The position numbers and the translations under genes were made by a program. Positions 3,970 through 26,971 of a stretch of DNA of 44,746 bases are shown here, in pieces (the first letter of the stretch is position 1; the number at the start of each line of letters is the position of its first letter). This stretch comes from Candidatus Limnocylindrales bacterium. Lineage in GTDB: Bacteria > Moduliflexota > Moduliflexia > Moduliflexales > JAUQPW01. The notes under the pieces were generated by a model. The model was not told the origin of the DNA. It made no database searches and saw only the letters and a program-made list of their open reading frames with translations. The stretch lies in assembly GCA_035559535.1 (NCBI GenBank), contig DATMBG010000036.1:124001-168746 (forward strand), given 5' to 3'.

Positions 3970-3986
3970 CGTCGGGATTTTTTACA
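3970..3986 (-). promoter_or_regulatory. Putative PrsR-type enhancer box
   Basis: Reverse complement TGTAAAAAATCCCGACG matches the three 17-bp boxes upstream of the PEP-CTERM gene; lies about 130 bp upstream of a sigma-54-type site. Confidence 0.65.
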
Positions 3987-4117: not shown

Positions 4118-4133
4118 TGGCATAATTATAGCA
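4118..4133 (+). promoter_or_regulatory. Putative sigma-54 (-24/-12) promoter of the left glycosylation operon
   Basis: TGGCATAATTATAGCA = GG-N10-GC; the -12 half overlaps a 15-bp tandem duplication ttatagcatatttaa (4126-4140, 4142-4156). Confidence 0.65.
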
Positions 4134-4465
4134 TATTTAAGTTATAGCATATTTAATAGTTTTACTTTCCTTTTTATCTTCCCTTTTCCTTTGCTCATTT
4201 TTACAGATTAATTTTAATAAAATAGTTCTAATTAAGATATAATATTGATGTTTTGAAAAATTTTAACTTAGGATATAGATTTAAGGGTATACCTGTTTAG
4301 GTTAAACATATTTTTACGGTTTTTTTCACAAATTAATATAGCTCAGTAAAAGCCTTTTGGAGTTTCTCTCAGGGTTGGGAAGCCATTCAATTTAAGTTGC
4401 TTGCTTGAAGCAGGTCTCCGCAGTGCCACTAATCCAGGCTTTATCGCTGTAAACAGTTTATAGAC

Positions 4466-5242
4466 ATGCAAGAAAAAGATATCCAACCATTTATCATCCT
4501 TCCTACCTACAACGAGCGGGAAAACATTCACCCTTTAGTTCAGCGGATTATAGAAGTCGATCCCCGGTTTTGTATCCTCATTATAGACGATAACTCACCG
4601 GATGGAACTGGTAAATTAGCCGACGAGCTGGCAGAGAAATTTCATCAGGTCCATACTCTCCATCGAAAAACCAAAATGGGATTGGGAACGGCGTATATAA
4701 CCGGGTTTAAGTACGCTTTAAGCCAAGGGGCAGAGTATATCTTCGAGATGGATGCCGATTTTTCCCATGACCCCTCCTATCTTCCTCAATTCCTGGAAGC
4801 CATACAGGATTCGGATCTGGTGATCGGTAGCCGATATATAAATGGGATACGGGTTGAAGGATGGAGATTTCGACGCCTGCTGATGAGCAAGCTTGCCAAC
4901 ATGTATGCTTCTTATATCATGGTTCAGCCTATCTGGGACTTTACCAGTGGATTTCGGTGCTATCGCAGAGCGGTTCTTGAAAGGATTAACTTCGATGAGA
5001 TTCATTCCGATGGCTATGCCTTTCAGATTGAGATGGTTTATCACGTTTTAAAAAACGGCTTTAAAGTCAAGGAAATTCCTATTCTATTTCGGGAGCGAAA
5101 ACATGGATATTCTAAAATTTCAAGGAAGATCGTCTGGGAAGCCTTTTGGACGGTTTTAAAACTTCGGGCTCCCCTCAAAGTGATCCTCTACCATGCCAGG
5201 GAATTTTTCAAGGATGATAAAGAGACCCTCTTCAACAGGTAA
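4466..5242 (+). CDS. Polyprenol monophosphomannose synthase (DPM1/Ppm1-like GT2)
   Basis: LPTYNERENI, DDNSPDGTG, KMGLGTAY, FEMDADFSHDP, VIGSRY, DFTSGFRCY, GYAFQIEM. Confidence 0.9.
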   Translation: MQEKDIQPFIILPTYNERENIHPLVQRIIEVDPRFCILIIDDNSPDGTGKLADELAEKFHQVHTLHRKTKMGLGTAYITGFKYALSQGAEYIFEMDADFSHDPSYLPQFLEAIQDSDLVIGSRYINGIRVEGWRFRRLLMSKLANMYASYIMVQPIWDFTSGFRCYRRAVLERINFDEIHSDGYAFQIEMVYHVLKNGFKVKEIPILFRERKHGYSKISRKIVWEAFWTVLKLRAPLKVILYHAREFFKDDKETLFNR

Positions 5243-6764
5243 CTTTGTGGGTACTTTTCTATTGTCCTTTTTTACTTACCTGTGGACTTTGGCTCCCACC
5301 GTTATCTGGGGGGATAGCGCAGGTTTTGCCCTGGAAGTTCGTAGGTCCTCTTTAAGGATTGGTACGGCCAGTGATCATCCTCTTTATATTTTATTGGGAC
5401 GTATTTTTGCCAGGTTACCTGGAGAATTAGCCTGGAATCTGAATTTACTCTCTGCCCTCTTCGGAGCCCTGACGGTTGCTTTTATTTATGCAATTACCTT
5501 TAAACTAACCCATTCTCCCTCAGCCGGATGGACCGCTGCAACTGCCCTCTGCTTTTCCCATGCATTCTGGCTTCATGCCGTCATCACCGAGGTCTATACT
5601 TTACATGCCTTTTTCGTAGCTTTATTGATTTACTTGCTTCTGGTATGGCGAGAGCATCCTCAGACAAATTACTGGCTTTATCTCATAGGTTTCACTCTGC
5701 TGTTGGGGCTTACCAACCACCTGATTCTGGCTTCCCTCCTGCCGGCTTTAATTTACTTTATTGTGGTCACAGACCCCTCCCGAATTTTTAGTAAAAAAGG
5801 GGTTGTGAAGATGATAGGCTTTTGGGGTGTGGCCTTTCTCCTGTTTTTGATTTTCCCGGGAAGTTTTATAACCACCATCCAGAAATTATGGTTTGGTCCA
5901 CCTCCTATTTATCACTATTTTACCTTCCCCGAAGGAAACATCCTGATCAAGGAAGTCCTATTCTACTTTCTCTATTTAATGTATCAGTTTCCCTGGATTG
6001 GTTTTATCCTTGGTTTTTGGGGAATAAAAAGCCTGTTAGAAGTAGATGTGAAGACCGGGATTTTCCTGCTTCTGGCCATGGGGATCAACGGCCTGTTTTT
6101 TATAAAAACCACGGCATGGCCGAGTTTGGGTTCTACAAAGTATACCTTTTACATCTCTGATTATGTCATATTCTCTCTTTTTATAGGTTACGGAACCTTT
6201 GCCATAGTGTGGAAGTATGGAAAGTTTGGAAAGGGGTATAAAAAGAGGAAGACAGGTGGAAGGTTACAACCTTTTGACATCTCCGGATTCCTACCTCTCT
6301 TCCTCATCCTGGCGATCGTTGCTGCGCCTCTTCTAACTTACAACCTGACTCCTTATCTGGTAAAAAGCCTGCATATAGATCTTTTACACGCCCGGGAAAT
6401 CCCTTTTAGGGATAATACCGCTTTTTTTCTGAATCCAGGCAAACGTGGAGAATATGGTGCCAGAAGGTTCGGTGAAGAAGCCCTGCGAGTTGTCAAACCC
6501 GATGCTATTTTGATTGCAGATTATACTCCCTACACAGTGCTACTCTATTTACAGGAGATAGAGGCGCTAAGACCCGATGTAATCATCCTATCCAGTAATT
6601 TTTATGGAAGCTTGAAAGATCTGCAACCGATCGTAGCCGAACACTTTCCTGAACACCCTGTCTACCTGGCGGGTATCAATTCGGGATATTACAAGATCGA
6701 TAATCTTCAGAAAAACTTTAATCTGGTCCGGGTAGGACCCCTCTTTGAGGTAACCAAAAAATGA
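5193..6764 (+). CDS. DUF2723/TMEM260-like multi-pass membrane glycosyltransferase (GT-C fold)
   Basis: TLAPTVIWGDS, HPLYILLG, NLLSALFGA, FWLHAVITEVYTL, GLTNH pattern of DUF2723; many TM segments and a soluble C-terminal domain; start could be ATG 5214. Confidence 0.8.
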   Translation: MPGNFSRMIKRPSSTGNFVGTFLLSFFTYLWTLAPTVIWGDSAGFALEVRRSSLRIGTASDHPLYILLGRIFARLPGELAWNLNLLSALFGALTVAFIYAITFKLTHSPSAGWTAATALCFSHAFWLHAVITEVYTLHAFFVALLIYLLLVWREHPQTNYWLYLIGFTLLLGLTNHLILASLLPALIYFIVVTDPSRIFSKKGVVKMIGFWGVAFLLFLIFPGSFITTIQKLWFGPPPIYHYFTFPEGNILIKEVLFYFLYLMYQFPWIGFILGFWGIKSLLEVDVKTGIFLLLAMGINGLFFIKTTAWPSLGSTKYTFYISDYVIFSLFIGYGTFAIVWKYGKFGKGYKKRKTGGRLQPFDISGFLPLFLILAIVAAPLLTYNLTPYLVKSLHIDLLHAREIPFRDNTAFFLNPGKRGEYGARRFGEEALRVVKPDAILIADYTPYTVLLYLQEIEALRPDVIILSSNFYGSLKDLQPIVAEHFPEHPVYLAGINSGYYKIDNLQKNFNLVRVGPLFEVTKK

Positions 6765-7612
6765 AAAGAAATCTGGATGAAGGATTGGGTACTGTTTACG
6801 AGCGATTCATGTTGAATAACCTTTTTGATGAGCTATTGGCCACCTACCCCATCCATAATGTTCTGGAAGTCCCTATTTATGGCATGTCCGGGCTAACCGG
6901 GATCAACAGCCTTCATTTTGCGAAAAAAGGTTGTCGGGTGACCCTTGTGGATAAAGACCAAAACTGGCTTTTAGAAGCTCAAGAATTATGGAAGATGGCC
7001 GATTTAAAAGATCAATGTCAACCCATTTATCAAAAAGATCTATCCCGACTTCCCTTCAAAGAAAATAGTTTCGATCTGGTATGGAACTTTGCAGCCCTCT
7101 GGTTTGTAGAACAGGCAGAGTCCTTACTCCGGGATATGATCCGGGTATCCTCTAACCTGGTGTTGATAGCGGTTCCTAATCCAGGGCAGCCAGGATATTT
7201 TCTACGGAAATATTGCATAGATCCAGACTTTTTCAAACAGGTCGATGAAAAATGGGTTCGTAAGGATCGGATTTGTCGGGTTCTGGCATCGGAGAACCTT
7301 CAAATCATCCGACAGGGTATTCTGGATATTCCACCCTGGCCGGACACCTGCGTCCCCATTAAACACATACTTCAAAAGTTCGGGATTCGTCTGAAAGAGA
7401 ATCCTTCAACAGGATCCCCGGAAGGAGGCTGGACCTGGAATATCATGGATTACTACCTGGGGAGAAATCCTGGGCTTAAGGAAAAGGTGGAACGATTTTC
7501 CTTCCTGGAGAAATCTCCTCTTCCTTATTTCTTTAAGGCTTTATGGGCTCACCATCACTATATACTAGGTAAAAAGCCTTCTTATAAAAGAGCTTTGACG
7601 GTTCGTCTTTAA
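6761..7612 (+). CDS. Class I SAM-dependent methyltransferase
   Basis: VLEV...GLTG, VTLVD, DLSRLPFKENSFDLVWN; ATGA-style coupling to the upstream gene. Confidence 0.8.
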   Translation: MKRNLDEGLGTVYERFMLNNLFDELLATYPIHNVLEVPIYGMSGLTGINSLHFAKKGCRVTLVDKDQNWLLEAQELWKMADLKDQCQPIYQKDLSRLPFKENSFDLVWNFAALWFVEQAESLLRDMIRVSSNLVLIAVPNPGQPGYFLRKYCIDPDFFKQVDEKWVRKDRICRVLASENLQIIRQGILDIPPWPDTCVPIKHILQKFGIRLKENPSTGSPEGGWTWNIMDYYLGRNPGLKEKVERFSFLEKSPLPYFFKALWAHHHYILGKKPSYKRALTVRL

Positions 7613-7698
7613 TAAAAATTGTATAGAGTTATATAAAATATGATATATAGTTATATTATTCCTCTCTAAGATAAACAGGAGAACTTTAGGATTTTAAA

Positions 7699-8667
7699 AT
7701 GAAAAACCTGAAAGATCCTATAAAGTATTGCAGCGTGGGGATCATGGCCCATAATGAGGAGGCCAACATCCATCGTTTGTTGGAGGCTTTATTAAGGCAG
7801 AATCTGGAGGGGTATCATATTCAGGAGATAATAGTGGTTGCCAGCGGGTGCACGGATAATACCGAAGCCCTTGTAAGGGAATTTTGTGGCCAAGATGAGC
7901 GGATTAAACTCCTGGTTCAAGAACAGCGGGAGGGAAAGGCCTCAGCGATCAATCTCTTCCTTCAAGAAGCCAAAGCCGACATCCTGGTTTTAGAAAGTGC
8001 CGATACGATTCCTTCTCGGAATGCCATAAAAAATCTCTTAAAACCTTTCTCAGATCCTAGAGTAGGGATGACGGGAGCTCGATCTCGTCCCATTAACCAT
8101 TTAAATACCTTTATGGGATATTCCATCAACTTCCTCTGGTGGATGCATCACTACCTAGCCCTTAGCAAACCTAAACTGGGTGAGCTGGTCGCTTTCAGGA
8201 ATGTCATTAAAAGAATCCCATCGGATACGGCGGTTGATGAAGCGGCCCTGGAAGCCATCTTAGTTAGAGCCGGATATCAAATCCTTTACGTGAAAGATGC
8301 TATTGTACGAAATAAGGGTCCAGAAACCATCCGGGATTACCTGACCCAGCGGCGACGTATCGTTGCAGGACATAAACATCTCTACAGAACCCAGGGATAT
8401 GCTGTAGCATCCACCGATATCCGGCTGATTCTATCTATTCTTGTGAAGAAAGTTTATCTTCATTTGGAAATGATCCTTCGGCTTATAAAACAAAGGCGCT
8501 TTCATCGCCTGACAAAGTATTTATTCCTCCATCTTCGGCGAGTTCTTTATATTATCGGAGCTATCTTCCTGGAAATTCTGGGCCAGGGCCTCGGAGCTTA
8601 TGATTTTTACATTAAAAAGAAAAACCCTTTCATCTGGGATGTGGCCAGAAGTACAAAGAAAATATGA
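7699..8667 (+). CDS. Glycosyltransferase family 2
   Basis: VGIMAHNEE, SGCTDNT, GKASAIN, ESAD, QRRRI (QxxRW-like). Confidence 0.88.
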   Translation: MKNLKDPIKYCSVGIMAHNEEANIHRLLEALLRQNLEGYHIQEIIVVASGCTDNTEALVREFCGQDERIKLLVQEQREGKASAINLFLQEAKADILVLESADTIPSRNAIKNLLKPFSDPRVGMTGARSRPINHLNTFMGYSINFLWWMHHYLALSKPKLGELVAFRNVIKRIPSDTAVDEAALEAILVRAGYQILYVKDAIVRNKGPETIRDYLTQRRRIVAGHKHLYRTQGYAVASTDIRLILSILVKKVYLHLEMILRLIKQRRFHRLTKYLFLHLRRVLYIIGAIFLEILGQGLGAYDFYIKKKNPFIWDVARSTKKI

Positions 8668-9764
8668 TGAAAACCAACTTATTTTCTAAAATTTTGAGGT
8701 ACCCCCTCTTTAGAAAATTCGGGTTCCCCAATACCCTTCCGGTTAATTTAACTGTCAGCATTTTGTACTCATGTAACGCCCGATGCCAGACCTGTAACAT
8801 TTATAAAAAACGGGTTGATAATCTTACGGTCGAAGAATACGACAGGATCTTCAAATCCCTGGGTAAAGCGCCATTTTGGTTTACCATTAGCGGGGGAGAA
8901 CCTTTCTTGAGGAAAGATATTGTGGAAATCTGTCGGCGTGCTTACCGGCACTGTAAGCCGGGTATCATTAATATTCCCACCAACGGGATTCTTTATCGGT
9001 TTATTCCGGATAGGGTGGAACAGATCGCAAAGAGTTGTCCGGATAGCCAGATCATCATTAATCTTTCTCTGGATGAAATCGGTGAGCGGCATGATGAAAT
9101 TCGGGGTTATAAAAATAACTACCAACTGGCCTTAAAAACCTACCAGCAACTTAAAAATCTCGATTATCCCAATTTAACCCTGGGGATTCACACGGTTCTA
9201 TCCAAATATAACGTCCATAACATTTTCCCTATCTATCATGAATTGGACCGACTGGAGCCAAACTCTTATATCACAGAAATAGCAGAGGAGCGGATGGAGT
9301 TGGATACGGTTGGGTTGGATATTACCCCTTCCTATGAGGAATATGCCCAGGCAGTGGATTTTCTCACCAAAGAAATTGAAAAGAAGCAGTCTATCTCGGG
9401 TACTTCGATTTTCCATATTTCCAAGATTACCCAGGCTTTTCGGCTAGAATACTATCAGTTGGTAAAACAGATTTTGTTGAAGAAAACCCAGGTGATTCCC
9501 TGTTATGCCGGTTGGGCTTCTGCCCATATAGCCCCGGATGGAAATGTGTGGACTTGCTGTATTCGGGCCGAGAGCATAGGAAATCTTCGGGAATATGACT
9601 ATGATTTCAAGAAAGTATGGTCTAGCCCAAAGGCTGAAGAACTCAGGGCCAGTATTCGAAATAAGGAATGTTATTGTCCATTGGCCAATGCCAGTTACAC
9701 CAATATGTTATGTTCTGGAAGGACCATAACCCGGGTAATCTGGCGAATTCTGAAATGGATATAG
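8664..9764 (+). CDS. Radical SAM protein with SPASM/twitch-like C-terminal domain
   Basis: CNARCQTC (CxxxCxxC), SGGEPFLR, TNG; C-terminal CYAG...PDGNVWTCC...IGNL...CYC. Confidence 0.9.
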   Translation: MMKTNLFSKILRYPLFRKFGFPNTLPVNLTVSILYSCNARCQTCNIYKKRVDNLTVEEYDRIFKSLGKAPFWFTISGGEPFLRKDIVEICRRAYRHCKPGIINIPTNGILYRFIPDRVEQIAKSCPDSQIIINLSLDEIGERHDEIRGYKNNYQLALKTYQQLKNLDYPNLTLGIHTVLSKYNVHNIFPIYHELDRLEPNSYITEIAEERMELDTVGLDITPSYEEYAQAVDFLTKEIEKKQSISGTSIFHISKITQAFRLEYYQLVKQILLKKTQVIPCYAGWASAHIAPDGNVWTCCIRAESIGNLREYDYDFKKVWSSPKAEELRASIRNKECYCPLANASYTNMLCSGRTITRVIWRILKWI

Positions 9765-10762
9765 TTGTCAGTGGAGCCACAGGTTTTATTGGTTATAATC
9801 TGGTCCAGCACCTTTCTCAGCAGGGATTCAAAATCTCAGGACTCATTAGAAACTTCCATAAAGTGGATCTCTTAACCCAATGGGGTGTAGAGCCGGTTCT
9901 TGTAGATTTGCAGGATACAGATAAATTGAAGGAAGCTGTTCGGGGTGCAAAGGTGGTTTTTCACCTGGCCGCTTTGAGGGGAGAAGGATTCTGGAGTTGG
10001 GAAGAGTTTTACCGGGTAAACGTAAAAGGTACCGAGAATCTCTTAAAAGCCTGTTTAAATCAGGTTAACCATTTTATCTACTGTAGTTCGGTCAGTGTCT
10101 TCGGCCATTTTTGGCCAGGACCTGCCACGGAGAACTATCCTTACGCCCCGGTTAACAATTACGGACGATCCAAGGTTGAAGCGGAAAAGCTTGTATTTCG
10201 CTATTATCAAGAAAAAGATCTCCCTGTAACCATCGTCCGCCCGGTCATCACTTACGGTCCTCAGGATGTAAGTGGCATGTTAACCAAGTTAATTCGATTA
10301 ATCTATAGTGGGAAATACTTAACGGTTGGGAATGGAAATAATCGGGTCCATTTGGTTTATATTGATGATCTTATTCAGGGATTTGAACGGATCATGACCC
10401 AACCCAGGGCCGTGGGAGAGGCTTTTATTATCGCCGGAGAAAAGCCGATTACCGTGAACGAGCTGGTCGCCAAGGTAGCTTTCATTTTAAATAAGAAGGT
10501 ACCTCCTTTTCACGTTCCCCGGAGTTTGGCCAGAGGTATCGGATTTTGTCTTGAAAAGATTTTTGCAGCCGGAGCTTCTACCCGTCTTTCTTTTTTTAAG
10601 AAGGAACCTTTATGTACCCGAAGTAAGGTTGATATTATGACCGTGGATTGTTCCTATAGTATTGAAAAAGCCCGGCAACTATTGGGGTATCAACCTCGGG
10701 TCCCCTACGATGAGGGGATTCGATGGACTGTTGAGTGGTTAAGAACCGGCCGGCAGCTTTAA
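9755..10762 (+). CDS. NAD-dependent epimerase/dehydratase (extended SDR)
   Basis: GATGFIG immediately after ATG 9755 (start corrected from 9668), HLAA, YGRSK, RPVITYGP. Confidence 0.9.
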   Translation: MDIVVSGATGFIGYNLVQHLSQQGFKISGLIRNFHKVDLLTQWGVEPVLVDLQDTDKLKEAVRGAKVVFHLAALRGEGFWSWEEFYRVNVKGTENLLKACLNQVNHFIYCSSVSVFGHFWPGPATENYPYAPVNNYGRSKVEAEKLVFRYYQEKDLPVTIVRPVITYGPQDVSGMLTKLIRLIYSGKYLTVGNGNNRVHLVYIDDLIQGFERIMTQPRAVGEAFIIAGEKPITVNELVAKVAFILNKKVPPFHVPRSLARGIGFCLEKIFAAGASTRLSFFKKEPLCTRSKVDIMTVDCSYSIEKARQLLGYQPRVPYDEGIRWTVEWLRTGRQL

Positions 10763-10765
10763 TCC

Positions 10766-11686
10766 ATGAGTTTGATAACTATTTCAGTAGTTATCCCTTC
10801 TTATAACTCAGAGCAAACCATCCGCTCTTGCCTGGAGGCTATTTTAAAGCAAAAGCCAAGGGGAGCCTTTGAGGTTCTTGTGGTAGATAGTTCTACGGAT
10901 TCCACACCGGATATTATCCGACGCGAGTTTCCCACCGTCAAGCTCATTCATTTGGATGAAAAAGCGGATCCTGGGACGGCCAGAAATCTGGGGGTTAAAG
11001 AAGCACAAGGTCGCCTCATTGCCTTTGTTGACTCAGACTGTATCGCGGCTTCGGACTGGCTCTTAAAAATGGAGGAGGCCCATACGGGGGATATCGTTGC
11101 CGTCGGGGGGTCTATAGACAATGGAAATCCCCACAGCCTGATAAGTCGCGCGGGATATTTATGTGAGTTTAGAGATTTTTTACCTGGAATACCCAAACAG
11201 TTGGTCCAACACATCGCCACCGGTAATAGTTCCTATCAGAAGAGTGTCCTGGTTGAGAAGGGAGGATTCTTCGGAGAGTTCCAGGAAGATCTCCTGTTCA
11301 ACTGGCGGTTATCCCAAGAAGGGAAGAAGATTCTTTTTGACCCGACTATACAGGTTCACCATTTTCATCGGACCCATCTGAAGGATTATTTGAAGCATCA
11401 GTATAAAATCGGCAGAACAACCGTGCAGGTCCTGAAGAAAACAGATCTCCAGGGGTCCTTTATCGTCAGGCATCCGGTTCTGGCTGCAGGGATCTTACCG
11501 GTTCTACCCTTTGTCAAATTTATTCGGACGATTTACACATTTATCAAATTCCGATCTATCCACTCTTTAGGTCCTCCCCTGGTAATTCCCCTCTTTTGCC
11601 TGGGGCTTTTTTCCTGGGCATTGGGATTTGCCTCGGGAGTTTATGGTTCACCTTTTAAGATTAAAGGTGAAGATAAGAACCCTTAA
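10766..11686 (+). CDS. Glycosyltransferase family 2
   Basis: SVVIPSYN, VVDSSTD, ARNLG, FVDSDC, EDLLF; C-terminal hydrophobic helices. Confidence 0.9.
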   Translation: MSLITISVVIPSYNSEQTIRSCLEAILKQKPRGAFEVLVVDSSTDSTPDIIRREFPTVKLIHLDEKADPGTARNLGVKEAQGRLIAFVDSDCIAASDWLLKMEEAHTGDIVAVGGSIDNGNPHSLISRAGYLCEFRDFLPGIPKQLVQHIATGNSSYQKSVLVEKGGFFGEFQEDLLFNWRLSQEGKKILFDPTIQVHHFHRTHLKDYLKHQYKIGRTTVQVLKKTDLQGSFIVRHPVLAAGILPVLPFVKFIRTIYTFIKFRSIHSLGPPLVIPLFCLGLFSWALGFASGVYGSPFKIKGEDKNP

Positions 11687-11688
11687 GC

Positions 11689-13008
11689 ATGGCCACTAAA
11701 ATTATAGAATGGGATATTTCTCAACCCATTGTACAGGAAGTCTCAACGGCATCCCATACTTCGGCTTCTCAAATTGGAGGCCTGGAGGGGTATCAGAATT
11801 TGCAAGTACTGGTAAGAATGGGGAGGATTCCATTGGGCCTTGTAAACCTGAAGGTGGATTCTCCTTTTATAGAAGTCTCCATGCTACTTCGAGAAATCTA
11901 CCGACAATTGGGGCAGAAGATTTCCCTGGAATTAGCCAGAAGGCCATCTTTTCCAGGGAAAGGAGAAGCAAAGGAAAGGGAGGGAACAAAGGGAGATGAA
12001 AAGAGAGATGGCCTTTCCTCCTTTTCTCCTTTAGTTTCGGTCTGTGTCTGTACAAGGAACCGTCCTGACGATCTACGTCGTTGTTTAAATTCCCTTATCT
12101 TGCAAGACTATCCCAGGTACGAAATTCTGGTCATCGATAATGATCCTCCGACTTCAGTAACAAAGGAGCTTGTAATGGAGATGAAGGGTCGGCTTGAAGT
12201 TACTGCCATCCGGTATGTTGTAGAACCTCGACGGGGTTTAGATTTTGCCCGGAACCGGGCGATCCAGGAGGCAAGGGGAGAAATTCTATCTTATCTGGAT
12301 GACGATACGGTTGCAGATCCTGGATGGATCACGTCCATAGTCGAAAATTTTCAATCAGATCCCCATATCATGGGTTGTACAGGACCTAATTTGGCCTTGG
12401 AGATGGAAACCGAAGCCCAAGAACTCATGGAATTAAGAGGAGGTTATGGTCATTGGTTTGAAAAAAGGATCTATGAACTCAGCTCTCCGATAGGAAGTTG
12501 TTATCCTTGTAAACCTATCTTTGGAGCCGGATGTAACATGTCTTTTCGGAGAAAGATCTTTGATTTTGTGGGTCTATTTGATGAAGCCCTGGATACTGGC
12601 GTCCCTCTACCGGGGGGTGGGGATGCAGACATGTTCTACCGAATTATTCGGGCAGGCTATAAAATTGCTCAGGATCCTAGGGTCCTGGTTTGGCACCGCC
12701 ATCGACGGCATTATAAAGAGTTACGAAGTCAGTTATACCACTCTTGGGGTCGGGGATTTATGGCCTATCTGGTTAAATCGTATCTGACCGATAAACCCTA
12801 TCGAAAAACCATTCTATCTGCCATAGTAGTCTGGTATGGTTATCAGTTAATAACCCGAGTATTCGGGCGTTTACGGGGAAAATATGATTTTCCAATGGAC
12901 CTGATCCTTGCCGAATTTTTAGGAGGGATAGTAGGCCTTGGGAGTTATTTTACCTCCTGGAGACGTATAGCTAAAATAAAAGCCATAACCGACTCCTGTA
13001 AAACATGA
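11689..13008 (+). CDS. Glycosyltransferase family 2 with N-terminal accessory module
   Basis: SVCVCTRNR, IDND, GLDFARNR, YLDDD, GAGCNMSFRR, GGGDADM, WHRHRR; paralog of 21025-22227 and 23727-24935. Confidence 0.92.
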   Translation: MATKIIEWDISQPIVQEVSTASHTSASQIGGLEGYQNLQVLVRMGRIPLGLVNLKVDSPFIEVSMLLREIYRQLGQKISLELARRPSFPGKGEAKEREGTKGDEKRDGLSSFSPLVSVCVCTRNRPDDLRRCLNSLILQDYPRYEILVIDNDPPTSVTKELVMEMKGRLEVTAIRYVVEPRRGLDFARNRAIQEARGEILSYLDDDTVADPGWITSIVENFQSDPHIMGCTGPNLALEMETEAQELMELRGGYGHWFEKRIYELSSPIGSCYPCKPIFGAGCNMSFRRKIFDFVGLFDEALDTGVPLPGGGDADMFYRIIRAGYKIAQDPRVLVWHRHRRHYKELRSQLYHSWGRGFMAYLVKSYLTDKPYRKTILSAIVVWYGYQLITRVFGRLRGKYDFPMDLILAEFLGGIVGLGSYFTSWRRIAKIKAITDSCKT

Positions 13009-13014
13009 ACTCCC

Positions 13015-14643
13015 ATGAGTCCAGATAGATATACCGTAGAAACTCAACAGACAGGGAGAAGCATAAAGATCGTTTTAGGAATTCTGACCCTACTTCTCCT
13101 TTCAGGCGGGGTTCTGGAACTTTATTGGAGATACTGGGTTATTGTCCCTTTAGAACTCGATTCCCGTAAGGGTCTTGAAGATCTTGTCCTGGCCATGGAC
13201 AGTAAGGATAGAAATACCCGCTGGAAAGCCCTCTCTTTGCTGAGAGAAATAAAGTCGGAGGAAACTCTTCCCCTTTTTGTTAAGGCCTTACAGGATGAAG
13301 ACTTTCGTATACGTGAAGAGGCCGAGAAGGCTCTTCGAGAACTGAAAAGGGAAAGAATGATGGAGTCCCTTCGGTTGATTTTTAAAGAGAAGGATCCCAA
13401 AATACGCCTGATAGCAGTATCTATAGCCGTTTCTTTACTGGCAGGACCCTATGCAGAACCTGCCACCCAGTTCCTCACCTATGCCTTGGAGGATGAAGAC
13501 CGGAATGTCCGTAAAGCGGCTTTGTCTGGATTGGAAAAGTTGGGGTTAGAGAAAATAACCGAACCTCTTCTTAAAGCCTTGCAGGATAAAGACGAGGAAA
13601 TCAGCAAGAAAGCAGCCTCGGATTTACTCCTGGCCAGGCCCGACAACCTGATTTCATCCCTTATACCTCTGCTGAAGTCCGAAGACGTCGACCTTCGGTA
13701 TAAAGCTATTTCTCTACTGGGAGAACTCAAAATCGAACCGGCTCTGGAATTTCTCGTCCAGGCCCTGAAGGACCCGGTTGAGTCTATACGATGGACGGCT
13801 GTATCGGCTCTGGAGGATCTGAAATCAGATCGTTTAGTTGAACCCCTTATTCAGGCACTTCTAAACGATCCATCCGATGGAATCCGTTGGAAAGCGGCTA
13901 CTATATTAGGAAAGCTGAAATCCGACAAGGCCGTAGATCCCCTCATCCAGGTCCTCCTTCATGATAAAAATGAGGGAGTACGATGGGAGGCTTTAACTGC
14001 ATTGGAGGAACTGAAATCTGAAAAAGCCGTAGATTCTCTTATCTGGATTCTGCTGCAGGAGAAGAATTTAAGATGGGGAGCATTGTCGGCTCTCAAGAAA
14101 CTTAAATCCAAAAGGGCTATCGAACCGATTATCCAGATCTTGAAGGATGAAAATGCAGGGATACGTGGGGAAGCAGCAACGGTTCTGGGAGAACTCTGTG
14201 CAAACGCTCCACCGGGGTATCCAACTTGCGAGAAGGCAGTAATGCCCCTTATAGAAGGGCTTAAAGATAAAAATGAATGGGTTCGAGGTCATATGATCAC
14301 CGCCCTGGGGAATTTAAAGTCAAAGACGGCCACGGAACCTCTCCAGAAAATGTTAAACGATCAAGATTTCCAGATCCAGGAGAAAATTGCCTTTGCTTTA
14401 ACCCAGATAGATGCCGAGATGGGAATCTCTCTGCTGGATCATAGATCCATCTGGGTGGTTAAGGGAGCCTCAGAAGCCCTGGCCCAGATCGGCGATGAAA
14501 AAACCCTGGAAGCTTTAAAGAGCCTGGCTGTAGAGCAAAAATTTAACGGAAAAATTTATTATATCTCTATCTCCGATCTTATGGAAAGAATCCAATGGCG
14601 ACTAAAAGAGGAGAAAATTCGGGATGATAAAAATAAAAACTAA
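13015..14643 (+). CDS. Membrane-anchored HEAT-repeat (PBS lyase-like) protein
   Basis: Single N-terminal TM helix, then many ~31-aa repeats L.D....IR..A...LG.L.S..AV.PL. Confidence 0.88.
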   Translation: MSPDRYTVETQQTGRSIKIVLGILTLLLLSGGVLELYWRYWVIVPLELDSRKGLEDLVLAMDSKDRNTRWKALSLLREIKSEETLPLFVKALQDEDFRIREEAEKALRELKRERMMESLRLIFKEKDPKIRLIAVSIAVSLLAGPYAEPATQFLTYALEDEDRNVRKAALSGLEKLGLEKITEPLLKALQDKDEEISKKAASDLLLARPDNLISSLIPLLKSEDVDLRYKAISLLGELKIEPALEFLVQALKDPVESIRWTAVSALEDLKSDRLVEPLIQALLNDPSDGIRWKAATILGKLKSDKAVDPLIQVLLHDKNEGVRWEALTALEELKSEKAVDSLIWILLQEKNLRWGALSALKKLKSKRAIEPIIQILKDENAGIRGEAATVLGELCANAPPGYPTCEKAVMPLIEGLKDKNEWVRGHMITALGNLKSKTATEPLQKMLNDQDFQIQEKIAFALTQIDAEMGISLLDHRSIWVVKGASEALAQIGDEKTLEALKSLAVEQKFNGKIYYISISDLMERIQWRLKEEKIRDDKNKN

Positions 14644-15481
14644 AAGAATTTTTAACCAGGTTCCAAAGTCCAGTCGGATTACCATCCCATCTGAAAAAAC
14701 AAGCCTGGGGCAGGATTGCAAGGAAATTCTGGCCCATCGACAGATTATTAAAAATTTTGTGGGTCGGGACCTTAAAATTAAATACCAAAGATCCATTTTG
14801 GGTTTCTTCTGGACCTTACTTAACCCTTTATTAATGGTGGTTATCTATACCCTGGTCTTTTCAAAAATCCTTCAATTTAACATCCCTTTTTATCCGATTT
14901 TTATTTTAAGCGGTCTTTTGCCCTGGAATTTCTTTTCTCAATCCCTATCCATGGGTTCTAGATCTATAACAGATAATTCGGGTCTCATCAACCAGGTTTC
15001 TTTCCCCCTCGAAATCCTGACCCTCAGTACCATTTTATCTATCCTTGTGGATTTTATTGTGGAATTAGGACTCCTGATGGGTATCCTTTTCATTATGGAT
15101 TGGAATTTAAGTCCTGCCATGTTATTCTTACCGATTCTGATCGTTATAGAATTTATCCTAATTCTGGGTATCTCGTTGATACTGGCCACTTTAAATGTGT
15201 TTTTTAGAGATGTTCAGCATATTATTTCCATCTTGTTGACCGCCTGGTTCTTCCTGACCCCTATATTCTATACCTTTGAATCGGTTCCACCTCCGTACAG
15301 GCCTCTTTATAAGTTAAATCCCATGGCGGGGATTATTGCCGCCTTCAGGGATATTCTCTACTATGATCGCTTCCCCGCGCTCGATTTTCTAATTTATCCG
15401 GGTATCGTGTCGCTGGTGACCTTCCTGGCCGGTTATTTGATTTTTAAAGGTTTCAAAGGAGTTTTTCCCGAAGAAGCTTAA
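14624..15481 (+). CDS. wzm: ABC-2 polysaccharide exporter permease
   Basis: RDLKIKYQRSILGFFWTLLNPL, FFRDVQH, FFLTPIFY, LNPM. Confidence 0.92.
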   Translation: MIKIKTKRIFNQVPKSSRITIPSEKTSLGQDCKEILAHRQIIKNFVGRDLKIKYQRSILGFFWTLLNPLLMVVIYTLVFSKILQFNIPFYPIFILSGLLPWNFFSQSLSMGSRSITDNSGLINQVSFPLEILTLSTILSILVDFIVELGLLMGILFIMDWNLSPAMLFLPILIVIEFILILGISLILATLNVFFRDVQHIISILLTAWFFLTPIFYTFESVPPPYRPLYKLNPMAGIIAAFRDILYYDRFPALDFLIYPGIVSLVTFLAGYLIFKGFKGVFPEEA

Positions 15482-15499
15482 AGGAGTAAGGTACCTTCC

Positions 15500-16237
15500 A
15501 TGAAAGTGGTAGAATGCAGTCATCTTTCTAAGAGATTTAAAATCTATAAACGAAAACAAAACACCTTGAATGGATTTTTTGTGAATCTTTTTCATCCAAA
15601 TTCCTATGAATACTTTTGGGCTTTAAAGGATATAAGTTTTTCCGTCTCTCAAGGAGAAACCTTCGGGATTATTGGCCGAAACGGTTGCGGGAAGACAACT
15701 TTGTTTAAAATTATTTCACGAATTTTACCTCCAACCACAGGGACCCTTTCGATAGAAGGAAAAGTTTCTGCCCTGTTAGCTTTAGGAGCAGGTTTCCATG
15801 GAGAGTTAACGGGACGGGAAAATATTTATTTAAACGGGTCAATTCTGGGATTATCAAAAAAGGAAATCGATCAGAAAATCGAAGCCATTATTGATTTTGC
15901 AGAAATTGTCCGGCCCTTTATCGATACCCAGATTAAGCACTATTCCTCAGGGATGTATCTACGATTGGCTTTTGCAGTTGCCCTGAGTGTTAATCCCGAT
16001 ATCCTTCTGTTGGATGAGATTTTGGGAGTTGGTGATGCCGCATTTTGGTATAAGTGTTTTGATAAAATCACCGAATTTCGGGATCAGGGAAAAACTCTTC
16101 TTCTTATCTCCCACGATCTGAGTTTGATGGAATATTTATGCCATCGGGTTATCTGGATCGATGAAGGGGTTTTGAAGGAAGAGGGTCCTGCAAAGGAAGT
16201 GATAGATCACTATCGGCAAGCAGTGGTCCCTAAATAA
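15500..16237 (+). CDS. wzt: ABC polysaccharide exporter ATPase, no C-terminal carbohydrate-binding module
   Basis: FWALKDISF, GRNGCGKTT, ELTGRENI, YSSGMYLRLAF, LLLDE; only 245 aa. Confidence 0.93.
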   Translation: MKVVECSHLSKRFKIYKRKQNTLNGFFVNLFHPNSYEYFWALKDISFSVSQGETFGIIGRNGCGKTTLFKIISRILPPTTGTLSIEGKVSALLALGAGFHGELTGRENIYLNGSILGLSKKEIDQKIEAIIDFAEIVRPFIDTQIKHYSSGMYLRLAFAVALSVNPDILLLDEILGVGDAAFWYKCFDKITEFRDQGKTLLLISHDLSLMEYLCHRVIWIDEGVLKEEGPAKEVIDHYRQAVVPK

Positions 16238-16264
16238 ATTATCAAATAATGAAATGTGAGGTGT

Positions 16265-16304
16265 CAGAAATCAAGAATTCCAGGATTTCAGTTCTTGATT
16301 TTTG
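16265..16304 (+). terminator. Hairpin between wzt and the trifunctional gene (terminator, attenuator or processing site)
   Basis: cagaaatcaagaa / ttcttgatttttg, 13-bp stem with one G-U pair. Confidence 0.45.
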
Positions 16305-16345
16305 TTCCTTCAGGGTTCCTTACTCTCAGCTTAGCCGGAATAACC

Positions 16346-19300: not shown

Positions 19301-20140
19301 AGTTCTCACGGGCAAAATACGCCGGAAATCATAGAACTCCCGCAATCTACTCCTCTACCTCCTCATGTCGCGGCTCGGGTCCTCTGGCAGGGGGGCCGTC
19401 CAAAAATCTACGGTCCCCCACCGACTACTGTCACAGACCGGCTTCCCATCCTCCTGTATCACCGTATCACACCCGACAGTTCCTCCCTGCGTTATTGTGT
19501 AACCCCCCAAATGTTCGAAGAGCAAATCCGTTACCTGCACGAGACCGGGTTCTATAGCATCAGGTTGGAGGATTGGCATACGGCTATGGAAACCCGGCGC
19601 CCCTTGCCGGGTCGAGCCATACTCCTCACCTTTGATGACGGCTATGCCGATTTCCTGACGTATGCATGGCCTGTGCTGAAGCGTTATGGCTTCTCCGCCA
19701 TGGTCTTCCTGGTTGCAGAAGAAATCGGACGTTTGAACCGGTGGGAACTTTTTTATGGAGAAGCAGTCCCTCTGCTTCATTGGGATGAAATTCATCAACT
19801 CCAAAAGGAAGGGGTTGAATTTGGTGCGCATTCGGCCACCCATCGTCCTTTGACGGCACTTTCTATAACTGAGATTGTTCGTGAAGGGGCCCGCTCCCGG
19901 GCAATCCTCCAGCGAGGACTGGGCCGTCCCGTCACGTCCTTTGCCTATCCCTACGGGGAAGTCGACCCGGTCGTTCAACACCTCATAGGAGCCTGTGGCT
20001 ATATCTTCGGCCTGTCTTGCCGACCCGAACGGAGCAGGTTTCAGGATTCCTTACTTGAATTACCTCGAATCGAAGTGACCGGTTCAGATAATTTACAGAC
20101 CTTTATCTCAAAACTCAGTATTAAGCCCGATTCTTCTTAA
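16346..20140 (+). CDS. Trifunctional GT2 / NodS-like SAM methyltransferase / NodB-type (CE4) polysaccharide deacetylase
   Basis: N-terminal GT2 (SVIIPAHN, VDDGSTD, FLDADD, EDWDLW); NodS-like DPWRY...YEQTKY...ALELACAEGHFT...LIVCSEVLYY; CE4 motifs ILLYHR, TFDDGY, HSATH, FAYPYG, LPRIEV; start set at ATG 16346. Confidence 0.88.
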   Translation: MRPSVSVIIPAHNAADTLAQTLESLLVQTVPDWEAIVVDDGSTDRTAFIATSFAERDPRIRTVSQLQKGAGAARNAGIRLAHFDWLLFLDADDWILPPLLERLTDGLIADPGLDAVHCGWARIAPNGEVFSEEGCTLSGDLFAKAACRCPFVIHSCIVRRSLVEMVGGFDSTFQTCEDWDLWQRIARTGARFGRIPDVLSRYRMRGHSLSSNVHQMLTDGLRVITLGHSRDPRVPNPDPAHMDGLPVENLSVTKALFVIWWAFFLIGCGQNPKPLLGRIKENRYLPLDPPVIAQMIFTTVPLALYKTPSAWVELWPSLARPIEEFLLSLEELTSPPGLMRRCSTILERLILDYWSAHIRGSKPQTLSMGTTHAVRIEVTEPIPDLIIPAPAERLHCTVELEGKSLGVIELPICDELVSAQVLTDAIAAKFFWPILGKFFERTIYPGVEIRETSKGLSVWRGAVLLAEGLPKPESQTFFQEIHDQIGWTLFLQEIWARPDWTSSHFYDPQSGDQPATRRHRVAQTRNGNNWLTLEVSGDLPDVEIMDQKLKVIPTVGGTALGIVTISVKGNLIRAQELRAVLTTVGGLELCRMAVREGLIGRPFEEAASLRTRLASVAQKNFRSITPKEPKEVLLVPDWTQTVARALSWDNLIKQPLRSVILARRAHGRIGTSVCRRALLPAAAAPDLIKAALAADEPVIQIHGLNKQSKPTVHLQNLLRQGWNRIWRRNPGYEDTEPPGRVIYVPDLLWQPCRHTSVSPVETKGSDEEPSPQKNRLMGGSSYDRHFFETIFVTQSDPWRYTHPYEQTKYEQTLALLPTLSFDKALELACAEGHFTVQLAPRVRSLMAADISQTALDRAAARCSNCKNVQFIRLDLTKDPLPGRFNLIVCSEVLYYVGRRDSLEAVARKLADALEPGGYLISAHANLVVDEPDRTGFDWNHPFGAKVIGEVLASTPPLRLVKELRTPLYRIQLFQRQYPIQGTYELSSHGQNTPEIIELPQSTPLPPHVAARVLWQGGRPKIYGPPPTTVTDRLPILLYHRITPDSSSLRYCVTPQMFEEQIRYLHETGFYSIRLEDWHTAMETRRPLPGRAILLTFDDGYADFLTYAWPVLKRYGFSAMVFLVAEEIGRLNRWELFYGEAVPLLHWDEIHQLQKEGVEFGAHSATHRPLTALSITEIVREGARSRAILQRGLGRPVTSFAYPYGEVDPVVQHLIGACGYIFGLSCRPERSRFQDSLLELPRIEVTGSDNLQTFISKLSIKPDSS

Positions 20141-20927: not shown

Positions 20928-20930
20928 GAT

Positions 20931-21025
20931 AGTTATCGATTTTATTTATCCACGAAGGGTCAAGAAAAATATGAGAATATGGGGGTATGGGTGTAAATTC
21001 TCCCATACCCCCACACTCCCATACT
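20931..21025. repeat. Octamer-hairpin element (family copy 2)
   Basis: AGTTATCGATTTTATTTATCCACGAAGGGTCAAGAAAA followed by aatatggg/ggtatggg, loop TGTAAATTC, tcccatac/ccccacac/tcccatac; collinear with 975-1077. Confidence 0.75.
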
Positions 21026-22227: not shown

Positions 22228-22245
22228 GACTCCAAGGAGAGTAGG

Positions 22246-22338: not shown

Positions 22339-22414
22339 CCTGTTGACAGGTACTTCCCTAAAAAACCTACCTTGATTGGGGAGCGTTCCTTAAGTCAAGG
22401 CCATGGGGGGTTAA

Positions 22415-26965: not shown

Positions 26966-26971
26966 TAGGGA

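Follow-up and report, generated by a model that had tools for sequence, protein, structure and literature searches.

A Ppm1-type synthase gene and the gene for a TMEM260-like transferase without TPR head a glycan-export operon beside an exosortase locus

What would a bacterium mannosylate with a relative of human TMEM260 whose gene overlaps that of a Ppm1-type polyprenyl-phosphate-mannose synthase and lies in one locus with an exosortase? The window, that is, the whole stretch of 44,746 nucleotides analysed here, raises this question. Human TMEM260 is the enzyme that O-mannosylates the IPT domains of proteins in the ER (PDB 9rql/9rqm/9rqn; PMC10214176; accessible text of preprint 10.64898/2026.03.17.711096). 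The first-pass annotation took the bacterial pair for a candidate protein O-mannosylation pathway coupled to PEP-CTERM sorting and added that it was aware of no such pathway characterised in bacteria; on the latter point our literature search agrees, in that the papers it reached describe no bacterial member of the family. Of the proposed pathway, the Ppm1-type synthase adjoining a TMEM260-like GT-C transferase and the sigma-54/box regulation common to the pair and a PEP-CTERM gene are retained here; the coupling to PEP-CTERM sorting and the protein acceptor are not supported. The reading that we tentatively put forward is that synthase and transferase form a module of lipid-mannose donor and periplasmic transferase, whose acceptor is probably the exported glycan of its own cassette.

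Two open reading frames on the + strand, 4466-5242 (258 aa, P0001) and 5193-6764 (523 aa, P0002), lie exactly where the pair had been placed. They overlap by 50 nt, or by 29 nt with the public-record start of P0002 (residue 8, nt 5214), and are the first two of 12 ORFs that run along the + strand from 4466 to 20140 with gaps of at most 87 nt (Table 1). The operon holds five GT2 domains, an SDR enzyme, methyltransferases, Wzm/Wzt and a deacetylase, and no O-antigen-ligase-like gene was found among the scanned ORFs of the window. Between 3600 and 21000, scans for sigma-70 promoters (29 vs 25.8 expected by chance) and terminators (20 vs 21.4 expected) stayed at chance level, and Rfam gave no credible match on 3600-4600. 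In the same locus as this glycan operon lies an XrtA/PEP-CTERM core system: the exosortase scores 230.1 bits against TIGR02602 (cut-off 105.55) and 214.9 against the XrtA model (208), EpsI scores 140.8 bits against a cut-off of 42.8, and the export protein is also above its cut-off.

Table 1. Features of the window (positions in nt unless stated)
Feature	Position	Strand	Remarks
16-nt box GTCGGGATTTTTTACA	3971..3986	+	candidate PrsR enhancer site (Haft motif 1 type, TTTACA end)
Inverted repeat TTTACA-N5-TGTAAA	4033..4049	.	68-79 nt upstream of -24 element
Sigma-54 type -24/-12 promoter TGGCATAATTATAGCA	4118..4133	+	332 nt upstream of first start codon
21-kb accessory glycan cassette	4140..25117	.	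absent from same-genus G001
Dpm1/Ppm1-type polyprenyl-phosphate-mannose synthase (P0001)	4466..5242	+	GT2, 258 aa, no membrane segment
TMEM260-like GT-C without TPR (P0002)	5193..6764	+	523 aa; public-record start 5214
P0002 codon Asp41	5313-5315
P0002 codon His62	5376-5378
P0002 codon Asp443	6519-6521
P0002 Rossmann-like periplasmic domain	residues ~395-523
SAM methyltransferase (Methyltransf_11)	6761..7612	+	start overlaps GT-C gene stop by 4 nt
GT2	7699-8667	+
Radical SAM/SPASM	8664-9764	+
SDR epimerase/dehydratase	9668-10762	+
GT2	10766-11686	+
GT2	11689-13008	+
HEAT-repeat protein	13015-14643	+	membrane-anchored
Wzm permease	14624-15481	+	polysaccharide-type ABC exporter
Wzt ATPase	15500-16237	+	polysaccharide-type ABC exporter
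GT2-methyltransferase-polysaccharide deacetylase fusion	16256..20140	+	1294 aa, last operon gene
Sigma-54 promoter	25336-25351	+
Exosortase	25431-26330	+
EpsI	26270-26965	+
PrsT TPR lipoprotein	27493..31077	-	TIGR02917, 769.7 bits vs 312.2
Boxes upstream of PEP-CTERM gene	31199, 31321, 31451	-	31199 with 1 mismatch
Sigma-54 promoter upstream of PEP-CTERM gene	31703-31718
PEP-CTERM protein	31822..32538	+	238 aa, substrate proposed in first-pass annotation
PrsR, sigma-54 two-component regulator of PEP-CTERM system	35785-37155	-	TIGR02915, 597.8 bits vs 502.6
PrsK, sigma-54 two-component regulator of PEP-CTERM system	37381-39477	-	TIGR02916, 477.2 bits vs 300

The presumed donor synthase P0001 is a GT2 enzyme of PF00535 (E 1.5e-30), and its closest solved structure is the Dol-P-Man synthase of Pyrococcus furiosus (5mlz; E 5.7e-35, residues 8-231), with which it has in common the catalytic domain and the DAD motif (MDADFSH aligned to MDADLQH). 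ArnC is its second-best solved relative (E 4.5e-11). The archaeal P. furiosus enzyme bears C-terminal membrane helices, whereas P0001 stops at residue 258 without them, and a scan for hydrophobic segments found none in it. Its best 120 listed homologues are 61-80% identical and, where named, are dolichol-phosphate mannosyltransferases or polyprenol monophosphomannose synthases. No NCBIfam equivalog cut-off was reached, the top model being AglJ (68.7 bits vs 325); homology suggests that the sugar is mannose.

P0002 stands above the gathering threshold of PF11028, the TMEM260-like family (83.9 bits, cut-off 24.2; E 1.6e-23), its residues 54-194 matching positions 12-174 of the 179 in the profile; it scores 38.9 bits against PMT_2 and has at least eight hydrophobic segments. 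In a profile search of solved structures, human TMEM260 was the sole sequence match (E 7e-26), and neither ArnT nor an oligosaccharyltransferase was found. The AF2 model (pLDDT 84.3, pTM 0.87) has a GT-C fold, with Z of 21.6-22.7 to PglB, STT3, AglB, ArnT, Pmt1/2 and ALG12; PglB, STT3, AglB and ArnT are tied at Z of about 22, covering residues 9-521, and the top Foldseek match is ArnT (E 3.7e-08, TM 0.56). Since the TMEM260 structure is in neither fold listing (Foldseek vs PDB, VIA-align wide), the ranks of ArnT and TMEM260 are not comparable, and the fold searches establish the GT-C fold only. The ESM Atlas holds many bacterial clusters of the TMEM260/DUF2723 family. Longer TMEM260-like paralogues of 690-732 aa from the same phylum, which retain GVAHPPGYPL, REGY and WGD, are thereby closer to TMEM260 than P0002 is. 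A single-protein search of genome contigs with P0002 found no relatives, and the related loci discussed below come from an alignment-based search instead. One 781-aa ORF, P0019, offered itself as an ABC_tran-DUF2723 fusion and hence as Rosetta-stone evidence; we rejected it, its ATPase signature being gone after Walker B, and count what looks like a frameshift read-through as adjacency only.

How much of the human active site does P0002 keep? The accessible text of the TMEM260 preprint (10.64898/2026.03.17.711096) places Asp52 in the first luminal loop and reports D52A to be inactive; it assigns functions to His67 (sugar-recognition motif), Arg264 and Tyr267 (donor loop) and Arg355 (membrane helix 10), makes Asp441 of the Rossmann-like luminal domain the catalytic base towards the peptide hydroxyl, and describes the TPR domain as necessary and sufficient for peptide recruitment. 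The Asp of the WGDS motif of P0002 (residues 39-42), which the first-pass annotation had singled out, aligns with D52, and this residue, D41, is invariant in 25/25 orthologues and in 7/7 short and long forms. Common to both proteins, besides PF11028 membership, the GT-C core and this Asp, is a Rossmann-like domain after the last membrane helix: the profile of the C-terminal domain of P0002 has residues 415-469 of TMEM260, in that domain, as its top PDB match (E 0.0027), and D443, invariant in the family alignment, corresponds to D441, HMMER placing it one column off and MAFFT, by way of the long forms, in the column of their WGD, which is aligned with G440-D441.

The sugar-recognition segment of P0002, by contrast, differs from that of TMEM260. 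HMMER and MAFFT both align H67 with Thr58, so that His67 is not conserved in position; an invariant His62 follows four residues later in a DHP motif, and the long paralogues keep their GVAHPPGYPL. By MAFFT, R264 falls on the variable His241 and Y267 on Tyr242, the family majority, in a loop much shorter than that of the long forms and uncertain in its alignment, and in a weak profile alignment R355 falls on Thr318, two residues after a nearly invariant Lys316. With 523 aa against 707, P0002 is also without the TPR domain: Pfam gave no TPR match, and the chain stops at residue 523 directly after the alpha/beta domain. Its donor, as the adjacent synthase gene implies, would be a lipid-phosphate-mannose, as in TMEM260, and its gene, unlike the human one, sits inside an operon with a polysaccharide-type ABC exporter.

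The sigma-54 -24/-12 pattern TGGCAY-N5-WWGCW occurs three times in the window (4118, 25336, 31703; shuffle mean 0.18, with three reached in 0/100 shuffles), each time upstream of a + strand unit, namely the glycan operon, the exosortase gene and the PEP-CTERM gene. The claim that one enhancer box precedes both operon and PEP-CTERM gene holds to the extent that, besides the sigma-54 sites, a 16-nt box GTCGRNWTTYTTTACA is found upstream of the operon at 3971 and upstream of the PEP-CTERM gene at 31321 and 31451 (exact) and at 31199 (one mismatch); the box pattern was derived from those same sites, which makes its count in the window circular. In the whole 5.6-Mb genome the pattern has four exact matches, of which a single one falls outside the window, some 300 nt from a further PEP-CTERM gene and on that gene's 3' side. 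The two upstream regions have no exact common word of 12 or more bases, and the box emerged after anchoring on the published TTTACA. According to the accessible text of Haft 2006 (PMC1569441), the sigma-54 site of PEP-CTERM genes is preceded by a 17-nt motif with TTTACA at its end; the operon's spacer from TTTACA to the -24 element, 68-79 nt, is inside the range given there (32-92), and its promoter-to-start distance, 332 nt, exceeds the maximum given (221). In the 420 nt upstream of the operon promoter there are five TTTACA/TGTAAA hexamers against a shuffle mean of 0.65. The homologous predicted promoter in G001, a genome of the same genus, drives a PEP-CTERM gene. Upstream of the Ppm1 gene in L057 we found a relaxed -24/-12 match only (TGGTAT-N5-TTGCT, at 253 nt) and no exact box, and the promoter and box search in G002 found nothing.

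G001 lacks the whole of 4140-25117, retaining a 77-nt relic of window 6014-6090; its exosortase, EpsI, PrsT, PrsK, PrsR and PEP-CTERM genes are kept, with a nucleotide identity of 88-93%. The two congeners thus differ in the cassette as one block, present in one and absent from the other, with the PEP-CTERM machinery constant. Across the phylum an exosortase is found in 9/9 genomes and the short TMEM260-like form in 4/9, and the proposed coupling to PEP-CTERM sorting fails this co-occurrence test as an obligate link: five of the nine have an exosortase without the short gene, G001 among them with no TMEM260-like gene at all. In other phyla, six of ten genomes with orthologues have an exosortase, taken as a bare proportion; none was found in the remaining four, two of which carry the gene on contigs of more than 5 Mb. 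Exosortase, EpsI, PEP-CTERM and export genes were found in the flanks (within 10 kb) of 0/48 related loci, and a motif scan of the source genome gave only about four candidate PEP-CTERM ORFs. The PEP-CTERM protein of the window is indeed Ser/Thr-rich, as had been supposed, at 24% Ser+Thr.

Within the phylum, synthase and transferase travel together. Eight of its nine genomes have both a TMEM260-like gene and a Ppm1 orthologue (identity 60% or more), and G001 alone has neither; in L057 (80% and 65% identity) the pair lies side by side, and in G002 they are two genes apart. In the source genome PF11028 is represented by a single gene and Ppm1 by a single close match, all other GT2 matches being at most 34% identical. 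From these single genes, their matching presence, the adjacency in L057 and the proximity in G002 we draw the link between P0002 and its donor. P0001 relatives at E<=1e-40 occur in 9/10 other genomes carrying orthologues. Synteny with L057 extends to 10 operon genes, the order of the block 7699-14643 being identical; the methyltransferase gene downstream of the GT-C gene is absent there and again follows it in G002, where no Wzm/Wzt match was found in the 60 kb searched. The related loci compared number 48 after removal of redundancy. Eight of them have a Wzt-type ATPase (at least 40% identity) no more than 10 kb away, which in L011 and L069 immediately precedes the GT-C gene; three have a Dpm1-like GT2 within 3 kb; and five have the gene of a large TPR protein within that distance, which in L002, L010 and L011 directly adjoins the GT-C gene. 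The upstream neighbour in L006 is a 1036-aa Ig-like/Fn3 protein, and neighbours at other loci include pyruvyl transferase, GT4 enzymes and a WecA-type transferase. A Pfam tally of the 102 ORFs within three genes of 18 orthologues (radical SAM 6, TPR 4, GT2 4, pyruvyl transferase 3) yielded no dominant family, the neighbourhoods being heterogeneous.

Most characterised bacterial pairs of a GT2 and a GT-C modify glycans or lipids. In ArnC/ArnT and GtrB/GtrC, a GT2 lipid-phosphate-sugar synthase and a periplasmic GT-C modify lipid A or exported O-antigen, and the present pair would take the same two steps, a cytoplasmic GT2 loading polyprenyl phosphate and a GT-C transferring outside the membrane, in the setting of a glycan export locus. 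P0002 is close to ArnT in fold, as P0001 is related to ArnC; differences are that P0002 has no sequence-level match to ArnT, that P0001 is without the membrane helices of GtrB and ArnC, and that the operon has no evident gene for a flippase of the GtrA or ArnE/F kind. Actinobacterial Ppm1, together with Pmt (GT39), carries out protein O-mannosylation and also feeds lipomannan mannosyltransferases. There too, a soluble Ppm1-type catalytic domain supplies polyprenyl-P-mannose to a periplasmic GT-C; here the GT-C belongs to PF11028 rather than PF02366 (PMT), and the organism to a small candidate phylum.

The gene identities, the operon, the promoter sites and the pattern in which the cassette is present or absent are established by the analysis; which sugar the lipid carries, its flipping, its transfer in the periplasm and its acceptor we infer along the following lines. 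The sigma-54 promoter and PrsR-type box would switch the operon on together with the exosortase and PEP-CTERM genes; P0001 would make polyprenyl-phosphate-mannose at the inner face of the membrane, and the lipid-sugar would be flipped across. The 12-gene operon would build a glycan and export it through the Wzm/Wzt transporter, and P0002, using its GT-C core and Rossmann-like "palm" without TPR "fingers", would transfer the sugar on the periplasmic side, giving the exported glycan of the same 21-kb cassette a mannose branch or cap after export. On this reading the pair resembles ArnC/ArnT or GtrB/GtrC in its mode of action and would not be a pathway dedicated to glycosylating PEP-CTERM proteins. 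A glycan acceptor is suggested by the GT2 and Wzm/Wzt content of the operon, by the synteny in L057, by the behavior of the cassette as a unit and by the Wzt genes near 8/48 loci, as well as by the lack in P0002 of the part of TMEM260 that recruits peptides; it agrees with the gene context no less well than a protein acceptor does. Against it stand the G002 module, with no Wzm/Wzt match in 60 kb, and the heterogeneity of the neighbours, in which the top Pfam family accounts for 6/102 ORFs.

Other objections to a glycan acceptor are at the same time arguments for protein O-mannosylation, which we consider rather unlikely: polyprenyl-P-mannose from the Ppm1-type synthase would let the GT-C add single mannoses to Ser/Thr of secreted proteins, such as the PEP-CTERM protein (31822-32538) or a Pro/Thr-linker protein (41828-44692). 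The only solved protein, and the sole characterised relative, that P0002 matches by sequence is a protein O-mannosyltransferase; D41 and D443, the counterparts of D52 and of the catalytic base D441, are invariant, and the Rossmann-like domain by itself finds that of TMEM260 first in the PDB. The promoter type and box are common to the operon and the Thr/Ser-rich PEP-CTERM gene, and in G001 the homologous predicted promoter stands before a PEP-CTERM gene. The TPR genes near the GT-C in 5/48 loci could supply peptide-binding "fingers" in trans, a part that might be played here by the HEAT protein 13015-14643 and in Acidobacteriota by the adjacent TPR proteins, and L006 adds its Ig-like/Fn3 neighbour. 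Weighing on the other side are the missing TPR domain, the alignment of H67 with Thr58 and of R264 with the variable His241, the five phylum genomes with an exosortase and no short form (among them the sister G001, which is without the cassette alone), the four of ten orthologue-bearing genomes in which no exosortase was found, the absence of PEP-CTERM system genes from the flanks of all 48 loci, and the few candidate PEP-CTERM ORFs in the genome. In its most far-reaching form, which seems to us decidedly unlikely, this reading would make the locus the first case in bacteria of protein O-mannosylation of the TMEM260 type, with a dedicated Ppm1 and a TMEM260 "split" over two proteins, one comprising the GT-C core and the catalytic palm and the other the peptide-binding helical-repeat module, switched on by PrsK/PrsR together with the exosortase and mannosylating Thr/Ser-rich PEP-CTERM or other matrix proteins before they are sorted into the exopolysaccharide layer.

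It is highly doubtful that the GT-C adds mannose to a lipid of the membrane or to a glycolipid anchor, like ArnT or PimE, or moves a Wzm/Wzt-exported lipid-linked glycan en bloc, like PglB or AglB. The Foldseek rank of ArnT, the tie of PglB, STT3, AglB and ArnT in fold, the lack of an O-antigen-ligase-like gene among the scanned ORFs and the Wzt-type ATPase directly upstream of the GT-C in L011 and L069 would fit such a role, but fold libraries without a TMEM260 structure make the rank of ArnT no fair contest, the profile search matches TMEM260 and neither ArnT nor the oligosaccharyltransferases, and the Ppm1 partner, dedicated and co-inherited as it is, suggests that a monosaccharide phosphate serves as donor. 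It is very improbable that the two proteins are mere neighbours, P0001 serving other GT-C enzymes, or that P0002 uses another lipid-linked sugar. The genome does contain 29 PMT_2-type GT-C matches and about 19 weak Dpm1-like GT2 paralogues, P0001 is below every NCBIfam equivalog cut-off, the sugar-recognition segment of P0002 is unlike that of TMEM260, and only 3/48 loci have a Dpm1-like GT2 within 3 kb; yet the genes overlap in one operon, have identical presence and absence across nine phylum genomes, lie next to each other in L057 and close together in G002, and the named enzymes among the best 120 listed homologues of P0001 are mannose enzymes.

The literature found by our search assigns no substrate to any bacterial TMEM260/DUF2723 member, and the present locus is an unusually clean test case, with a genome that holds a single Ppm1 gene and a single TMEM260-like gene, a promoter defined as of the sigma-54/PrsR type, and a sister species that is a natural "knock-out" keeping the rest of the exosortase locus. 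The identity of the acceptor would show whether the split active site of the animal enzyme evolved on glycans or on proteins and, for floc- and biofilm-forming bacteria, whether it is the matrix proteins or the matrix polysaccharide that bear lipid-derived mannose.

Two overlapping genes head the operon, sharing 50 nt, or 29 nt when P0002 begins at residue 8, as its public record has it; intergenic gaps within the run are at most 87 nt. The first-pass annotation had called these genes a GT2 and a DUF2723 protein, and profile searches agree: P0001 matches PF00535 (E = 1.5e-30), and P0002 scores 83.9 bits against PF11028 (cut-off 24.2) and 38.9 bits against PMT_2, with no NCBIfam match. We consider it well supported that the pair forms a module of a lipid-phosphate-mannose synthase and a periplasmic GT-C enzyme. 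P0001 has no hydrophobic segment, and among solved structures it comes closest to the Pyrococcus furiosus Dol-P-Man synthase (5mlz, E = 5.7e-35; DAD motif aligned), then to ArnC (E = 4.5e-11). Every one of the 8,000 candidates scored for P0001 passed E ≤ 0.001, giving it at least 8,000 homologues; the top 120 of these 8,000 share 61-80% identity with it, and where a source gives them a name it is dolichol-phosphate mannosyltransferase or, once, polyprenol monophosphomannose synthase.

Features of the window and of related loci. Coordinates without a prefix are window positions; G000, source genome; G001, same-genus (sister-species) genome; L, fetched related loci.
Feature	Coordinates	Strand	Description
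Cassette	4140-25117		21-kb glycan region
Operon	4466-20140	+	12 ORFs
P0001 ORF	4466-5242	+	258 aa
P0002 ORF	5193-6764	+	523 aa
Operon ORFs 1-3		+	GT2, TMEM260-like GT-C, Methyltransf_11 methyltransferase
Operon ORFs 4-6		+	GT2, radical SAM/SPASM protein, SDR
Operon ORFs 7-9		+	GT2, GT2, membrane-anchored HEAT-repeat protein
Operon ORFs 10-12		+	Wzm, Wzt, 1294-aa GT2-methyltransferase-deacetylase fusion
-24/-12 sites	4118; 25336; 31703		Before operon, exosortase gene and PEP-CTERM gene, respectively
Promoter region with G001 homologue	3671-4139		
GT-C segment with G001 relic	6014-6090		77 nt
Avd-like gene	27024-27437		Four-helix bundle (TIGR02436), between EpsI and PrsT
Second AglJ/PpgS-like GT2	40044-41501	-	Methyltransferase-fused, adjoins PrsK
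Secreted-looking protein	41828-44692	-	954 aa; Fn3-like N-terminal region, long Pro/Thr/Ser linkers, six DYDGD-type repeats
Dispersed repeat	1011-1084; 39781-39840		About 70 nt
G001 PEP-CTERM gene	L129:1655-2491 = G001:C151:60154-60990	-	278 aa
Fourth box copy, region	G000:C35:4917-5850		
PEP-CTERM gene near fourth box	G000:C35:5215-5850		
Second exosortase-like match	G000:C22:219633-220489		33.7 bits (weak)
Wzt-like ATPase/GT-C loci	L010:9000-13862; L011:9011-13685; L069:5794-8127		Acidobacteriota-type
GT-C/Dpm1-like genes, examples	G000:C40:30529-45018; G000:C45:22295-28794		

Among all solved structures, the sole sequence match of P0002 is human TMEM260 (E = 7.4e-12 with the single sequence, 7e-26 with a profile of 25 orthologues). 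Its AF2 model is a GT-C fold (pLDDT 84.3, pTM 0.87) that resembles PglB, STT3, AglB, ArnT, Pmt1/2 and ALG12 at Z scores of 21.6-22.7, with ArnT the top Foldseek match; since the TMEM260 structure is absent from the results of both fold libraries, fold searches cannot distinguish TMEM260 from ArnT. Papers on TMEM260 (the preprint 10.64898/2026.03.17.711096 among them) place D52 and H67 in the first luminal loop and R264 with Y267 in the donor loop; they also point to R355, assign the role of catalytic base to D441 of the Rossmann-like luminal domain, and report that the TPR domain is both required for recruiting the peptide and enough to do so. The Asp of WGDS, which had been singled out for comparison with TMEM260, is D41 of P0002; it is invariant and does align with D52. 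When only the last 140 residues are made into a profile, the top PDB hit is the Rossmann-like domain of TMEM260 (residues 415-469; E = 0.0027), and invariant D443 shares a column with D441 when aligned via longer bacterial forms, or lies one column off by HMMER alone. As for the other features, Thr58 aligns with H67, with an invariant His62 four residues later, the variable His241 aligns with R264, Y267 has a possible match in Tyr242, R355 has no clear counterpart, and the TPR domain is missing. Because longer paralogues in the phylum (690-732 aa; none in the source genome) retain GVAHPPGYPL, REGY and WGD, P0002 falls in a branch of the TMEM260 family that has diverged and lacks the TPR. The ESM Atlas holds bacterial clusters of both short (~480-510 aa) and long, TPR-bearing forms; no bacterial member of TMEM260/DUF2723 is described in the literature we found on the family, judged partly by title.

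The remainder of the window encodes a full XrtA/PEP-CTERM system (exosortase, EpsI, PrsT, PrsR, PrsK, export protein and PEP-CTERM protein, each above its NCBIfam cut-off). Matches to the -24/-12 pattern TGGCAY-N5-WWGCW number three across the window, against 0.18 in shuffles, and each stands before a + strand unit. According to Haft 2006 (PMC1569441), PEP-CTERM genes carry a 17-nt motif, with TTTACA as its last bases, 32-92 nt upstream of their sigma-54 site. In this window the -24 element of the operon is 79 nt from TTTACA and 68 nt from TGTAAA; for the exosortase gene the corresponding distance is 63 nt (one TTTACA-type copy), and for the PEP-CTERM gene it is 246-376 nt (three copies). The proposal that one enhancer box precedes both the operon and the PEP-CTERM gene is borne out, as a 16-nt box, GTCGRNWTTYTTTACA, and a -24/-12 site stand before each; the pattern, which was derived from those very sites, has four exact matches genome-wide, the fourth about 300 nt past the 3′ end of another PEP-CTERM gene. 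Elsewhere in the genome, the second exosortase-like match adjoins a 917-aa ORF with a PEP-CTERM-like tail.

Window positions 1-4139 and 25118-42990 have collinear counterparts of 88-93% identity in the sister-species genome (G001, 97% complete), which lacks the cassette. The homologous promoter there drives a PEP-CTERM gene without a homologue in the source genome, followed by a GT-C relic at 96% identity and then the exosortase gene. The cassette is thus an accessory part of the exosortase locus, and its loss or replacement involved the whole of it at once. Other differences lie outside it: the Avd-like gene is inverted in G001 and only 53% identical as protein between flanks of ~90% nucleotide identity, and the repeat region of the secreted-looking protein is rearranged (several overlapping BLAST pieces). 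The dispersed-repeat stretch at 1011-1084 matches ~35 places in G001 at 74-91% identity. The second AglJ/PpgS-like GT2 is kept there despite the absence of the cassette, and a related GT2 stands divergent beside the GT-C gene at locus L058.

The phylum is small (nine species genomes), and eight carry a Ppm1 orthologue (≥60% identity) and eight some TMEM260-like gene. G001 alone lacks both; in a set of related genomes this counts as one loss, so the link is suggestive only. Ten operon genes stand in the same order on a metagenome contig (L057; 65% and 80% identity), the methyltransferase missing; in G002, another genome of the phylum, Ppm1, GT2, SDR, GT-C, methyltransferase and GT2 genes adjoin PrsK/PrsR, and the 60 kb fetched there gave no match to Wzm/Wzt. 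Outside the phylum, P0002 orthologues (25-45% identity) come from MAGs labelled Acidobacteriota, Nitrospirae, Latescibacterota, Chloroflexota, Planctomycetota and others. We counted neighbors at 48 non-redundant loci where the match spans almost the whole protein and the flank reaches 6 kb or more, after removing 11 duplicates and the shorter loci. A Wzt-type ATPase (≥40% identity) lies within 10 kb in eight, directly upstream in L011 and L069 (that of L010, at 40%, falls marginally below the threshold); a Dpm1-like GT2 lies within 3 kb in three, and PrsK/R-like genes occur in two. At the Acidobacteriota-type loci L010, L011 and L069, the Wzt-like ATPase gene that immediately precedes the short TMEM260-like one has no Wzm-like permease ORF beside it, and in L010 and L011 a ~750-aa TPR protein after the GT-C gene completes a three-gene unit. 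Among 10 other orthologue-carrying genomes, P0001 relatives (E ≤ 1e-40) occur in nine (raw count). An exosortase occurs in six (raw count), in three of them on the same contig, 20-55 kb from the GT-C gene; it was not found in four, two of which hold the GT-C gene on contigs of more than 5 Mb.

The acceptor is where readings diverge. The pair had been proposed as a protein O-mannosylation pathway coupled to PEP-CTERM sorting, and several observations speak for protein as substrate: P0002 is homologous to a protein O-mannosyltransferase and conserves the catalytic Asp of the palm domain, the operon is co-regulated with a Thr/Ser-rich PEP-CTERM gene, and PrsT-like TPR protein genes lie within 3 kb of the GT-C gene in 5 of the 48 loci (directly adjacent in L002, L010 and L011). 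Even so, we find protein O-mannosylation somewhat doubtful, and PEP-CTERM proteins improbable as its specific targets. Co-occurrence did not bear out an obligate coupling: exosortase is present in all nine phylum genomes versus the short form in four, and exosortase, EpsI, PEP-CTERM or export genes are found in the flanks of 0 of the 48 loci. A lipid acceptor or an en-bloc role for P0002 we judge quite improbable. Mannose is predicted from homology, P0001 reaching no NCBIfam equivalog cut-off; that the sugar is another, or that the pair is not coupled, strikes us as very unlikely.

Our own preference, held tentatively, is that P0002 would act on the cassette's own glycan product. Gene context favors it, through the ABC-exporter operon, gain and loss as a unit, and recurrent Wzt and glycan-enzyme neighbors, as do the missing TPR domain and the diverged sugar-recognition segment. 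Systems of the ArnC/ArnT and GtrB/GtrC type offer a model for comparison. The 5.6-Mb source genome has 29 PMT_2-type GT-C matches and ~19 weak Dpm1-like GT2 paralogues, and several such genes lying side by side suggest that this bacterium maintains many separate lipid-sugar glycosylation modules.
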